Positions 9,001 to 15,000 of a stretch of 64,000 nt of DNA are shown here, piece by piece (the stretch's first letter is position 1; the number at the start of each line of letters is the position of its first letter). The DNA lies in assembly GCF_058153355.1 (NCBI RefSeq), contig NZ_CM177019.1; one strand, written 5' to 3'. The position numbers were made by a program.

Positions 9001-12000
9001 TTGCTCACCCAGCGTTTCCGCCATTTCTTCCTGAAGAGCGCTGATTCGCTCCTGTGCTTCCTGTATCTGCCGTTCGGTTTTTGCACGAAGTTTTTCTGAG
9101 CTTTTACCGAACTGCATGCGCTGCAGTTTTGCAACCAGCGCCTTCAGCCGGTTGATTTCGGAAGCATAAGCCGCCACCCGCTGTGAGAGCAGGCGGTTGT
9201 ATTTCGCCATCTGGCGGATGGTGTCCTGTTGCGTCTGCAACAGTGCCCGCAGGCGGGCATTCTCATGAGCAAGTGAGGTGTCCATATCCTCACTTTACAA
9301 CGGGTTATATGCGGATGCCAGCGCGTTCCGTTCGTTTCGGGTGTTTCCAGTCGATGCCCTCAAGAAGCATGGATAACTGGGCCGGAGTAAGGTGCACCTT
9401 GCCGTCACGGGTGACCGGCCAGACGAAGCGGCCCCGCTCCAGGCGTCTGGTGAAGAGGCACAGTCCGTCACTGTCAGCCCACAACACTTTTATCTGGTCA
9501 CCCCGGCGTCCGCGGAAGATGAACAGATGCCCGGAGAACGGGTCATCCTTCAGGACGTTCTGAACTTTTGAGGCCAGGCCGTTAAAGCCATTTCGCATAT
9601 CGGTGATACCTGCAACCAGCCAGATACGCGAACCTGCAGGGAGAGATATCACCGTCTCAGCTCCTGTATAAGCAAGGACAGCAGATTTTCATTCACTGCC
9701 CCGTTCAACCGAAGGGTGCCGTTTCTGAACGTAATCTCACAGGAGATGCTGTGTATTTCCGGTGTTACTGACGGTCTTGCGGTCAGTGGCTCATTAGCCG
9801 GAGCAGTTGGGAGTTGGGCATCAATAGTGACAGGAATTAACTGAGATTCTCTGCCTGATTCTGATGATGGCAATTTTATCTTCCCCTGCCGCCATTTCTG
9901 ACGCCATTTGAACAACAGATTGGCATTAATACCATTGTCCAGGGCCAGTCTGGAAATTGAAACACCTGGCTGGAATGATGCTTCTATGAGTCGTTGTTTG
10001 AATTCAGGAGGATAATTCAGGCACCCTTTAGGCCTTCCCGGAGAGGCATTTTTTTGTATATCTGACATTTTTATCACCCACTATTAATTTAGTGGTGGAT
10101 ACTTTGTCCAAAGCATCGGGAATTTGCCAGACGGTCCTGATAAGACGCTTACGAATCTTTTATGAAAGGGAAATCTACATTAACTCTTCTGCTCGCTGGT
10201 ATATTCTCATGCGGCACATGCCAGGCGACAGGGGCAGAAGTGACGAGTGAATCTGTATTTAACATTCTTAATTCCACAGGGGCAGCAACAGATAAAAGTT
10301 ATTTATCGTTAAATCCAGATAAGTATCCTAATTATCGTCTTCTGATTCACTCAGCCAAATTAAAAAATGAAATAAAGAGCCACTATACCAAAGACGAAAT
10401 TCAAGGATTGTTAACATTAACAGAAAACACACGAAAGTTAACGTTGACGGAGAAACCCTGGGGAACGTTTATTCTTGCTTCTACTTTCGAAGATGACAAA
10501 ACAGCGGCAGAAACCCACTATGATGCTGTCTGGCTGAGGGATAGTTTATGGGGCTATATGGCATTAGTATCAGATCAGGAAAATAGGGTAGCTGCAAAAA
10601 AGATTCTGCTCACCCTGTGGGATTATATGTCTACGCCCGACCAGATTAAGCGGATGCAGGACGTCATTAGCAACCCAAAACGACTGGATGGAATTTCCGG
10701 GCAAATGAATGCTGTGCATATCCGATTTGACAGCAACTCCCCCGTGATGGCAGATGTGCAGGAAGAAGGCAAGCCGCAGCTGTGGAACCATAAACAAAAT
10801 GATGCGTTAGGTCTTTATCTTGATCTCCTTATACAAGCAATCGACACTGGTACTATTAACGCTGAAGATTGGGAAAAAGGTGACCGATTAAAATCGATTG
10901 CGCTGTTGGTTGCTTATCTGGATAAAGCCAATTTCTATGTTATGGAAGATTCCGGAGCGTGGGAAGAAGATGCCCGATTAAACACATCTTCCGTTGCACT
11001 GGTGACCTCTGGACTGGAACGTTTGTCAAACCTACTCTCGAAGAAAGACTCTGTTTTTATCTCTGATTTACTACGCGAAGCTAAAGCTAATGAACTGGAT
11101 GAACCTCTTTCAACAACGAGGTTGAACCACCTCATAGATAAAGGTTATGAAAGAATAACGTTACAGCTTGATTTAGGGGGAGAATCCCCAGGTTATCTGG
11201 AAAAAGATAAACATTACAGAGAAGCCGATGCGGCTTTACTTAATGTTATTTATCCTGCAAATCTTTCAAAGATAAATACCAGAAGAAAAGAGCAAGTTCT
11301 AAAAATAGTTAAAAAACTAGCAGGTCCGTATGGTATAAAAAGATACGAGAAGGATAATTATCAGTCGGCAAATTTTTGGTTCAATGATATTAAAACCGAT
11401 ACCGATCAAAATTCATATGCGAAAAGAGAAATGAGCTTCATACCATCAACAGAAGCAGAATGGTTTTTTGACTCATGGTATGCAAAATCAGCAGCAATTG
11501 TTTATAAAGAATCAAGAAAAGAAGAGTATTTGAATGACTCAGTGCAATTTATGAATAGATCATTGGCCCAAATAACAGGCGAGAATATGATTGGTGCAAA
11601 TGGCAGGAGTGTACCTGAAATGGCACTTCCCGAAAGCTATAACTATATCCACAAGTCGGGAACTTTGCATGAAGCGCCAAGCCCTATCATTCCGCTAAAT
11701 TGGTCGAAAGCTTCAATGACTCTCATGTTGAAAGAGATGTCCAACCTTATCAATGATGAGGGAAATAAATAGTTTTCATAATGAGGCGGTCCTGGATTAA
11801 AAGGACCGCTCAAAGAGAAATCGAAAGGGGAGGTAAAAGTGATCAATAAATTACTGTTAGCTTACCTGATAGGTCTGGTTGTGACATCGACTTTAATATT
11901 TATCTTCTCGGAAGAAAAAGTAACATATCGGTTGTTTGCTGCAATAATTACAGGTTTAACCTGGCCGCTTAGTCTCATTCCTTCCATTATAAGTCTCATG

Positions 12001-15000
12001 ATTCGTAAATCCGACTAACAAGAAAATTATATGATCGATTAAGAAAAATAGAATCGAACAAGAGAATAAAATATATGCGGGGAGTAACAAAACACTCGCA
12101 GTGCGTTAATGAAGAACTAACAAATATGATTTGTATTGAAAATAGTTACCAAACAAGTGTTATAAGAAATACGAGGTGTGTTTAAGTAAAACATATCAAC
12201 AGTTACAAATCTGTATATGGACAGGATGACGTACAAGTGTAAGTGGCTGATAGCTATTCGCTCATAACAAAATCATTATTTTATAAATAGGAATCATCAC
12301 TTTTTAATCATGTTTTTATAGCAAGTTTATGGAGAATGAGAATATGGAATAAGGAGATGAAACATGATTGAAGAAGGGCTGTTACTTCCAATGAATGTTT
12401 TGCTTCAAGGACAGAAGTTAACCCTACTGGACCCTGAAATGTGGTTCTTACGGGGAAATGAAAACAAGGATGTAACCCTTGTTATTACGATTGGTAATAA
12501 CCATCAAAAATTAATGGTAGTGGAAGACATATTACTGCTCATTGACCGAAGCCAAATTGAGGTAACTGCAGGGAAAGTAATTTATCATCCACTTCGCATT
12601 GATATCCTGAGTAAATTATTAGCTTTTATAGATGAATCAACGGGGAGTGTGGAAAGGGAACACCATGACTTGTTTGCTGATGCCTTGCCCTTTGCATCAG
12701 AAGTTGTGCTATTCAGTAAAGTTGCAAGTGAAGCCTGGTTTTTAGCCACTTATCTGAGCAGCGATAATATTAATGAAATTCTGTTTCAGCATCTAAGAAA
12801 AACAGAATGCTATAAACTGGTTCGCTATTTATTATCGCAATCGCTCATACAGACTTCACTCTATGATCTTGGTGAGCTTTACGGCGTATCGTATTCACAT
12901 TTTCGCCGTTTATGTAGTTATGCATTGGGTGGTAAAGTTAAAACGGAATTATGTGGCTGGAGAGTTGCCAGAGCCGTGTTGGAAATCATTGAAGGAAACA
13001 GTGATATGACAACTATTGCGCATAAATATGGCTACTCTTCCTCATCACACTTTTCAGCCGAAGTAAAAAGCCGGTTAGGAAAAACACCGAGAGAACTATG
13101 TAAAAAGCTATGAAAATAAAAATACGCATTACTATTATATTAATTTCAGTCTTATGCATTTTTAATGGATTATCGACTCCTGGTGCATATGCCGCAACAG
13201 CGAATGGATACGTAGCAAATAAAGAAAATCTACGTAGTTTTTTTGAAACGGTTTCATCATATGCGGGTAAGCCTACAATAGTTAGTAAGCTTGCCATGAA
13301 GAAACAGATCAGCGGAAATTTTGATTTAACCGAACCCTATGCCTTGATTGAACGCCTGTCGGCGCAGATGGGACTTATTTGGTACGATGATGGCAAAGCT
13401 ATTTATATCTATGACTCATCAGAGATGCGTAATGCGCTGATTAATCTGAGAAAGGTATCGACGAATGAGTTTAATAATTTTTTAAAAAAATCGGGTCTGT
13501 ATAACTCTCGTTATGAAATTAAAGGGGGCGGCAATGGTACTTTCTATGTATCGGGGCCACCGGTTTATGTTGACCTGGTCGTTAATGCTGCAAAATTAAT
13601 GGAGCAAAACAGTGATGGCATTGAGATCGGACGCAATAAAGTAGGTATTATTCACCTGGTCAACACATTCGTTAATGACCGGACTTATGAATTACGTGGC
13701 GAAAAGATAGTTATTCCTGGCATGGCAAAAGTACTATCGACGTTGTTAAATAATAACATTAAGCAAAGCACTGGGGTTAACGTACTTTCTGAAATTTCAA
13801 GTCGTCAACAACTAAAAAACGTATCACGTATGCCTCCTTTTCCTGGTGCTGAAGAAGATGATGACCTACAAGTAGAGAAAATAATATCGACAGCTGGAGC
13901 GCCAGAGACTGACGATATACAAATTATTGCATATCCAGATACCAACAGTTTACTTGTTAAAGGAACAGTATCTCAGGTTGATTTTATCGAGAAGTTAGTA
14001 GCTACGCTCGATATTCCAAAGCGACATATTGAATTATCTTTATGGATAATAGATATTGATAAGACTGATCTAGAACAGTTAGGAGCTGACTGGTCGGGCA
14101 CGATAAAAATTGGATCCAGCCTAAGTGCATCATTTAATAATTCAGGTTCAATTAGTACCCTGGATGGGACACAGTTTATTGCAACAATACAGGCACTTGC
14201 GCAAAAAAGAAGAGCCGCCGTTGTTGCTCGTCCTGTCGTTTTAACACAGGAGAATATTCCTGCTATATTTGATAATAACCGTACTTTCTATACTAAATTA
14301 GTCGGCGAGCGTACTGCGGAGTTGGATGAAGTAACCTATGGTACGATGATTAGCGTGCTACCACGATTTGCTTCGCGAAATCAAATTGAATTACTCTTGA
14401 ATATTGAAGATGGCAATGAAATCAATTCCGACAAGACCAATGTTGATGATCTGCCTCAGGTTGGTAGAACGCTTATAAGTACTATTGCGCGCGTGCCTCA
14501 AGGGAAAAGTCTTTTGATTGGTGGATATACACGAGATACGAATACCTATGAAAGTCGCAAGATACCAATATTAGGCAGTATTCCATTTATTGGTAAATTA
14601 TTTGGATATGAAGGAACAAATGCGAATAACATCGTTCGTGTCTTTCTTATTGAGCCAAGAGAGATCGATGAGCGCATGATGAATAATGCGAATGAGGCTG
14701 CGGTTGACGCCAGAGCAATAACACAGCAAATGGCAAAAAATAAAGAAATCAACGATGAATTACTGCAGAAATGGATAAAAACTTACTTGAATCGTGAAGT
14801 CGTCGGAGGATAGTGAAATGGCGATTCATGTAGAGCATGTCGGTGTATTAGAAAGAGCCAGAGAAGTTTCTCGCTTAGAGGACATTATCACAGAAGATAA
14901 TGAAGATATTGAAGCTGAAATGCCTAAAATGGGAGATGATCCCGCCGGTAAAGAAGCTCGATTCTTACAAGCTACTGACGAGATGTCAGCAGCGTTAACG

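Follow-up and report, generated by a model that had tools for sequence, protein, structure and literature searches.

The question raised by this locus is whether two genes at the edge of a type III secretion system (T3SS) island, one for an exported protein resembling glycoside hydrolase family 15 (GH15) and the other for a small membrane peptide, serve the secretion system beside which they lie. Both genes were located in 64,000 nucleotides of an Escherichia coli-group chromosome (contig NZ_CM177019.1, assembly GCF_058153355.1; this whole stretch is referred to below as the window), at the glyU edge of the ETT2 island (type III secretion system 2 of E. coli), between an IS66-family insertion sequence (IS) and eivF, exactly where the initial annotation had placed them (Table 1). 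That annotation described a 536-aa exported GH15-like protein and a well-initiated 59-aa two-helix membrane peptide, neither of them a canonical T3SS component, and proposed the former as a possible cargo of the secretion system or a surface-modifying enzyme. The description was borne out, the two products being a GH15-family protein and a GhoT/OrtT-family peptide; the proposed cargo role was not, and surface modification is a possible function. Taken as a whole, the locus is probably best explained as the known gene pkgA, encoding an exported GH15 enzyme, followed by an orphan gene for a GhoT-like peptide, with the promoter of pkgA cut off by the IS.

Both genes are already known and annotated in RefSeq: pkgA/ygeQ (ECs3736-3737, EC042_3075) and the ydcX-like gene ECs3735 (“GhoT/OrtT family toxin”, WP_001301699). 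A review of ETT2 described ECs3735 as a 180-bp ydcX homologue encoding an inner membrane protein, labelled ECs3736/pkgA “phosphorylase kinase and glucoamylase”, and listed ECs3737 as well (PMC3977695). The resemblance to both enzymes is noted in PMC2808357 too. ECs3736 and ECs3737 appear to be the two halves of the O157 copy, which is frameshifted there. The gene in the window is the same gene at the same site, between glyU and eivF, and is 96-99% identical to E. coli copies; it is intact (536 aa), whereas K-12 ygeQ (b2863) is a remnant truncated at nt 1137 and the O157 Sakai copy is frameshifted. It is further set apart by an IS66 insertion specific to this strain. The family of the peptide, the published names of both genes and the short distance between the IS and the start codon were not part of the initial annotation. 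The new observations are modest: the conserved pairing of a GH15 gene with a GhoT-like gene, and a lineage-wide link of this pair to ETT2-like islands.

The 536-aa protein scored above the gathering threshold of the Pfam GH15 family (PF00723; 27.1 bits vs. 22, E = 2.5e-6, residues 94-401), confirming the GH15 resemblance first noticed in the sequence; the match was weak and left the C-terminal quarter uncovered, and the same profile was matched by 48 of 60 members of the clade. The AlphaFold2 model built from the 60-sequence alignment (pLDDT 91.8, pTM 0.91) was disordered only at residues 1-23 (pLDDT below 50), and in this model PkgA is predicted to be a single-domain (alpha/alpha)6-barrel protein. 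Sequence and profile searches of the PDB with PkgA matched only phosphorylase kinase (PhK), in its alpha and beta subunits. In a library of 1.84 billion representative proteins, the cut-off of E <= 1e-3 was passed by only 466 entries and that of E <= 1e-30 by 82; the PkgA family is a small, separate and divergent branch of GH15. Full-length homologues extend down to approximately 40% identity. The solved relatives nearest to PkgA are a minimal isomaltose glucohydrolase of GH15 and the D1 domains of PhK alpha/beta, which are glucoamylase-like and whose nearest bacterial relative is the PkgA clade. The ratio of non-synonymous to synonymous substitutions (dN/dS) of pkgA was 0.135 with respect to the closest E. 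coli copy and 0.082 with respect to Escherichia albertii, and that of the peptide gene was 0.114 with respect to E. albertii: pkgA is under purifying selection, and neither open reading frame (ORF) arises by chance.

The residues expected of a GH15 active site were sought by alignment to Aspergillus niger glucoamylase (the sequence used was identical to 3EQA). The family profile placed W124-R126-D127 on W52-R54-D55, W208...Q212-D214 on W120...Q124-D126, and W267-E268-E269 on W178-E179-E180, all at low probability and as colinear blocks; a local alignment placed R394/D398/Y400 on R305/D309/Y311. E268 also aligned with E185 of PhK alpha, a residue named catalytic in a cryo-electron microscopy study (PMC10978961). 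E268, E269 and E491 were invariant in the 60-sequence alignment, and the remaining residues of the -1 subsite were invariant or nearly so. PkgA retains the acid and -1-subsite residues of GH15 (Y120, W124-R126-D127, W208...Q212-D214, W267-E268-E269, R394...D398...Y400), and its catalytic apparatus seems intact.

In GH15 enzymes the catalytic acid lies in the alpha5-alpha6 loop and the base in the alpha11-alpha12 loop (PMC12446779). By helix count, E268 was found between barrel helices 5 and 6 of the PkgA model, and E491 in the loop joining the last two helices, within a motif (LPESYN) that resembles MSEQYD of glucoamylase and is retained as PE(L/A)Y in more distant relatives; E491 is the putative general base. 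The step from E491 to E400 of glucoamylase had to be inferred, because no alignment tool joined the two directly: hhalign of the family profile with A. niger glucoamylase aligned the N-terminal half only (probability 3.8%) and did not reach E400, the pairwise local alignment misplaced the C-terminus of PkgA, the last 112 residues of PkgA, searched against the PDB, gave nothing relevant, and searches with the bridging sequences P0272 and P0319 found PhK only, or nothing.

Compared with its solved relatives, PkgA has the W-x-R-D, W...Q-x-D, W-E-E and R-Y-x-x-D-x-Y blocks in common with the Kribbella flavida isomaltose glucohydrolase (KfIG; 5Z3A) and the glucoamylases 3EQA and 1LF6, and the large beta-sandwich found at the N-terminus of bacterial glucoamylases is missing from it, as it is from KfIG. 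Identity to these enzymes is only 13-16%, and sequence searches never reach them; unlike them, PkgA has an additional family-specific N-terminal region of approximately 95 residues and a putative signal peptide. The D1 domains of PhK (8JFK) belong to a kinase complex of 1.3 MDa in the cytosol and have no detectable hydrolase activity (PMC10978961), whereas the bacterial protein is predicted to be stand-alone and exported.

The call of an exported protein in the initial annotation seems reasonable. The N-terminus of PkgA (MKGKSTLTLLLAGIFSC17GTCQA23), which coincides with the disordered part of the model, has a charged start and a hydrophobic core, and contains a loose lipobox (GIFSC) or a signal-peptidase-I site (CQA↓T); signal peptides and lipoboxes were called by rule-based pattern reading. 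E. albertii PkgA has VLAC at the same Cys17, signal-peptidase-I-type sites without the cysteine were seen in homologous loci (referred to by L numbers) of Yersinia (L044, AQA↓S) and other bacteria (L009, AFA↓T; L047, ANA↓Q), and several copies from Bdellovibrionales and Oligoflexia have canonical lipoboxes. Signal-like N-termini were present in approximately 45 of the 60 family members, many with a lipobox, and absent from approximately 13, including the Bifidobacterium and Clostridiales proteins. PkgA is putatively exported by Sec, and the Escherichia proteins are possibly lipid-anchored at Cys17.

The 59-aa peptide matched the Pfam family Toxin_GhoT_OrtT (PF10753; 45.1 bits vs. 22.1) and was 39% identical to K-12 GhoT (E = 2e-12), with hydrophobic stretches at residues ~4-24 and 32-55; this match and the Shine-Dalgarno sequence ahead of its GTG agree with the well-initiated two-helix membrane peptide originally described. 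It has in common with GhoT and OrtT (YdcX) of K-12 the similar size, the two hydrophobic helices and the motif G(L/I)TWP(L/M)SL, which is conserved as G(L/I)(T/S)WP(L/M)SL in the GH15-linked peptides and reads GLTWPLSL in the window. It differs from GhoT in a short charged C-terminal tail (RKSD) and in always being encoded beside a GH15 gene. Membrane damage is caused by both GhoT and OrtT, of which the former is restrained by the RNase GhoS and the latter has no antitoxin (PMC4344625). Phe38 of GhoT/OrtT is needed for toxicity, F38R being the sole variant assayed (PMC4344625); the position is Ile36 in the 59-aa peptide, and Ile, Val, Leu or Phe, all of them hydrophobic, in other GH15-linked peptides, so the toxicity of the peptide is inferred.

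With K-12 GhoS as query, tblastn gave no convincing match in the window, the best one (E = 0.024) lying at 41076-41174, well away from the locus, and no match in any GH15-linked locus; as GhoS is missing, the peptide gene is classified as an orphan without adjacent antitoxin, like ortT, and not as part of a type V pair. Rfam gave no match at E <= 1 between positions 7300 and 12500, and hence no known regulatory or antitoxin small RNA near the peptide gene. The idea that the pair derives from a holin, a phage or a defence system was rejected: there was no PADLOC hit, and PHROG matches were weak (E = 0.009 or worse) and carried no holin annotation. The region around the junction of the two genes folds stably (11765-11850; -19.7 kcal/mol, z = -3.1). 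In six of seven lineages a hairpin comes right after the GH15 stop codon; these hairpins are unrelated in sequence, and three of them are U-tailed, which suggests a terminator-like insulator between pkgA and the peptide gene.

If the preferred explanation is right, PkgA would act in the periplasm or at the envelope after Sec export, cleaving an alpha-glucosyl unit off the non-reducing end of an oligosaccharide or glycan. It would not be injected via the T3SS, its position at the edge of ETT2 reflecting long co-inheritance with the island lineage. The two-helix peptide, in the inner membrane, would damage the membrane when over-produced, by analogy with GhoT/OrtT, and the hairpin would insulate its gene from pkgA.

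The state of the locus in this strain bears on expression. The IS66 element (PGAP names its matches “IS66-like element ISCro1 family transposase”) ends 9 bp ahead of the pkgA ATG, and its transposase genes are directed away from pkgA. The native upstream region, of approximately 230 bp, was found beyond the element: positions 7436-7683 correspond to the 3' end of the tRNA-Gly gene and the intergenic DNA of an IS-less E. coli genome (L013, 111-359; 96.8%). No complete E. coli genome had an IS66 insertion at pkgA (every match began at query base 154), and the insertion is therefore recent. No consensus promoter site was found on the plus strand between 10000 and 10162, nor a promoter-like one between the IS end and the ATG, and promoter-like sites were no more numerous in the region than expected by chance; an outward promoter from the IS was rejected. 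Since the IS has removed the native promoter region, pkgA is probably silent or weakly expressed in this strain.

The secretion system itself is also damaged. Compared with the intact 2,061-bp eivA of an E. coli genome, the eivA of the window (15956-18015) has a 1-bp deletion near 17361, which splits the SctV export-gate gene into ORFs of 509 and 208 aa, and ygeH, encoding a HilA-like regulator, has a 1-bp deletion at 31245 and a 1,329-bp IS3-family insertion (31412-32740; a 136-aa HTH_Tnp_1 ORF and a 301-aa rve ORF). In this strain ETT2 probably does not work. The region from the GH15 gene to yqeH is colinear with the E. coli ETT2 island; the T3SS block proper begins with eivF, a name used in some RefSeq genomes. 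G+C content is 32-42% across ~10.1-39 kb of the window vs. approximately 50% in the flanks, and the flanking core genes lysA, lysR, galR and ygeA are 95-99.3% identical to those of E. coli. For this window, the locus formed by pkgA and the peptide gene is ordinary and degraded.

Table 1. Coordinates of the features at the pkgA locus (positions in the window).
Feature	Position	Strand	Remarks
IS66-family ISCro1-like element, 2,469 bp	7684..10152	-	ends GTAAGCG...; target duplication
tnpA (IS66 element)	10077-9649	-	ORF of the IS66 element
tnpB (IS66 element)	9652-9305	-	ORF of the IS66 element
tnpC (IS66 element)	9285-7714	-	ORF of the IS66 element
8-bp target duplication GAATCTTT	7676-7683 and 10153-10160		flanks the IS66 element
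Native 5' region of pkgA (glyU-pkgA intergenic, expected promoter)	7453..7683	+	displaced by 2.47 kb
pkgA/ygeQ, intact, putative GH15-family (alpha/alpha)6 glycosidase	10162..11772	+	ATG start, 536 aa
Putative signal-peptide coding part of pkgA	10162..10230	+	residues 1-23: MKGK, hydrophobic core, C17, CQA23
Hairpin after the pkgA stop	11786..11809	+	8-bp stem GCGGTCCT/AGGACCGC, 8-nt loop, no U-tract
Shine-Dalgarno sequence of the 59-aa gene	11827-11833		strong; GGGGAGG, 5 nt ahead of the GTG
GhoT/OrtT-family putative membrane toxin gene, ECs3735/ydcX-like	11839..12018	+	GTG start, 59 aa
eivF, InvF-like AraC regulator	12364..13113	+	NCBIfam InvF, 184.7 bits; HTH_18/HTH_AraC
T3SS secretin gene	13110-14813		3' of eivF

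Distribution within the species was analysed in 5,426 complete E. coli genomes, a set to which the strain of the window does not belong. At least part of pkgA was present in 3,986 of these genomes and at least 80% of the gene in 2,968, so that intact copies are common despite the defects of K-12 and O157, and the gene is not a pseudogene remnant in all relatives. The peptide gene and the start of eivF were retained alongside pkgA in only 1,324 genomes; in approximately 1,640, most of pkgA was retained, the peptide gene was gone and eivF to eivJ were deleted. This common ETT2 deletion (eivF to part of eivJ, plus the peptide gene) starts at window position 11785/11786 and joins the locus to eivJ; in the sampled genomes carrying it, it starts 13 nt past the pkgA stop, at the first base of the hairpin stem.

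Beyond E. coli, full-length homologues were found in E. albertii (77% identity), Yersinia enterocolitica (58-61%), several enterobacterial-type contigs (49-65%) and Commensalibacter (52-54%), and also in termite-gut Elusimicrobiota, Planctomycetota and Synergistaceae, in Clostridiales Family XIII, Bifidobacterium, Bdellovibrionales/Oligoflexia, Francisella, Endozoicomonas and Saccharibacteria. A scan of 20 neighbours revealed no consistent gene neighbour outside Enterobacterales from which the substrate might be guessed, the only leads being a sugar-type major facilitator superfamily (MFS) transporter at two loci and opgGH at one. In Endozoicomonas ascidiicola (L031, 7684-9558), the gene 5' of the GH15 homologue codes for a protein with a BIR domain (inhibitor of apoptosis) of eukaryotic type.

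The least unlikely alternative, which we still consider improbable, is that the ETT2/Salmonella pathogenicity island 1-like T3SS lineage has a functional envelope module made up of the enzyme and the GhoT-like peptide, some loci also having InvH close by. In one possible variant, a periplasmic or outer-membrane glycosidase would trim glucosyl groups of the lipopolysaccharide core or O-antigen, or periplasmic glucans, aiding the needle; in another, the peptide would control release of the enzyme. The related proposal, that the two genes are a conserved module whose periplasmic or surface-anchored alpha-glucoside-trimming enzyme remodels an envelope glycan (such as glucosylated lipopolysaccharide or periplasmic glucans) relevant to secretion or host life, the peptide being its partner and not a free-standing toxin, is similarly improbable. 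The pairing itself is well conserved: a GhoT/OrtT-like gene lies 46-99 bp 3' of the GH15 gene in six diverged lineages (E. coli, E. albertii, Y. enterocolitica L044, L045, L046 and L047), and upstream of it on the same strand in L043. T3SS homologues lie nearby in ETT2 and in five further loci. L009 (1-14659) has hilA-like and iagB-like genes, luxR, orgA and prgK/J/I/H, followed by F-type sopA/sopB and a SopD/pentapeptide effector-like gene; its only match to known plasmids was sopAB (79%), and it looks like a plasmid-borne ETT2 relative in an enterobacterium. The order in L047 is GH15, ghoT-like, invH-like, hilA-like, iagB-like, luxR, and org and prg genes, and homologues of InvH (L043), EivF (46%) and a YgeG-like chaperone (L046), and YgeH (L010) were found in the others. 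One distant homologue (47%; L048, 1619-9611) lies beside opgG (MdoG), an opgH-like glycosyltransferase family 2 gene and a PF10091 “Glycoamylase” (beta-1,2-glucanase-type) gene, a context that hints at a link to periplasmic glucans.

The same loci supply the objections to such a module. All linked copies fell in one clade of a neighbour-joining tree (built without bootstrap), and thus represent one old retained linkage rather than repeated recruitment; in the 31 loci outside the enterobacterial clade, no T3SS or GhoT homologue was found within ~8-10 kb where the contig allowed. The enzyme occurs without a functional peptide gene in L009, L010 and Y. enterocolitica L003 (9687-9860; enzyme gene intact, in-frame stop after 26 codons of the GhoT-like gene, which is intact in Y. 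enterocolitica L044), as well as in the ~1,640 E. coli genomes with the deletion. The hairpins stand between the two genes, the peptide has no credible holin, phage or defence match, and the opgGH/PF10091 neighbourhood was seen in L048 alone among the loci compared.

Several points weigh against the explanation preferred here, an exported GH15 enzyme with an orphan peptide and a severed promoter. The assignment of E491 depends on invariance, motif and loop position, the glucoamylase alignments stopping before the C-terminus, and the enzymatic function of all clade members is predicted. GIFSC17 fits the PROSITE-type lipobox pattern and not the strict [LVI][ASTVI][GAS]C; the silencing of pkgA follows from the position of the IS by deduction; and one enterobacterial clade keeps the GH15 gene beside ETT2-like T3SS genes though its neighbours change, so that a role related to the T3SS is conceivable. 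PhK alpha, the nearest relative with both glutamates, is inactive on maltose, isomaltose and glycogen (PMC10978961), and GH15 includes a retaining transglucosylase, dextran dextrinase, with the same two glutamates (PMC12446779), so that the mechanism cannot be read from the sequence.

The last two points are the core of a second alternative, in which PkgA is not an alpha-glucoside hydrolase and instead has a carbohydrate-binding or regulatory role without catalysis, like PhK alpha/beta, the only solved relatives reached by sequence, or is a retaining transglucosylase like dextran dextrinase. This was judged unlikely: the -1-subsite residues show little or no variation over the 60 sequences, which come from many phyla, a pattern that fits conserved catalysis, and a sugar-type MFS transporter gene lies directly 5' of the signal-less Clostridiales XIII copies and of the Francisella copy, an arrangement expected of catabolic glycosidases.

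Least likely among the alternatives is a role of PkgA as an ETT2 type III effector, the cargo of the initial annotation, injected into host cells and acting on glycogen metabolism. The position of pkgA at the end of the ETT2 cluster, the homology to the glucoamylase-like domains of PhK alpha/beta and the continued linkage of the enterobacterial clade to ETT2-like T3SS genes all favour it. An effect on host glycogen is recorded as a tentative speculation in the ETT2 review (PMC3977695), and the same tentative proposal was made for EC042_3075 in the genome paper of enteroaggregative E. coli 042 (PMC2808357). The N-terminus of PkgA is hydrophobic and of the Sec type, and no chaperone-like ORF adjoins pkgA among the ORFs of the window. 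Type III effectors are cytoplasmic proteins with a non-hydrophobic N-terminal type III signal and without a Sec signal, and often have an adjacent chaperone gene. The T3SS-linked copies themselves have a Sec signal or lipobox (L009, L047 and E. albertii), as does most of the family; members with no T3SS in the vicinity occur in Gram-positives, Saccharibacteria, Bdellovibrionales and other groups; and most of pkgA is retained in the ~1,640 E. coli genomes from which the T3SS core was deleted. The conserved Sec signal, the members without a nearby T3SS and the retention after T3SS loss make an injected effector very unlikely. A peptidoglycan-lytic role of PkgA for the T3SS was rejected, since ETT2 has its own SLT lytic transglycosylase (and its own InvH) and the predicted fold is that of GH15.

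On the other side of the IS66 element, positions 1-7452 of the window are occupied by a mobile element integrated at glyU, with ORFs matching primase/Pox_D5-like, ProQ/FinO and DUF2213 families. Porcine enterotoxigenic E. coli strains have elements of 90-94% similarity at the same site, and related elements include a PerC-family regulator in the RefSeq annotation. Only the last ~18 nt of the tRNA-Gly gene are left (~7436-7452), as an att-type repeat; ARAGORN found no tRNA in the window, and the intact glyU must therefore lie beyond its first base. At the end of the element, an ORF with a SocA/Panacea antitoxin-like domain (6351-6836) overlaps an ORF of 147 aa (6833-7276) without a Pfam match, and the two may be a PanA-type toxin-antitoxin pair.

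For two decades pkgA has been quoted as a possible ETT2 effector, and the evidence gathered here redirects attention to a role in the periplasm or envelope. The substrate of the PkgA clade could also give a clue to what the glucoamylase-like domains of PhK bind, and the conserved pairing of the GH15 gene with a GhoT-like peptide gene is a small, testable observation.

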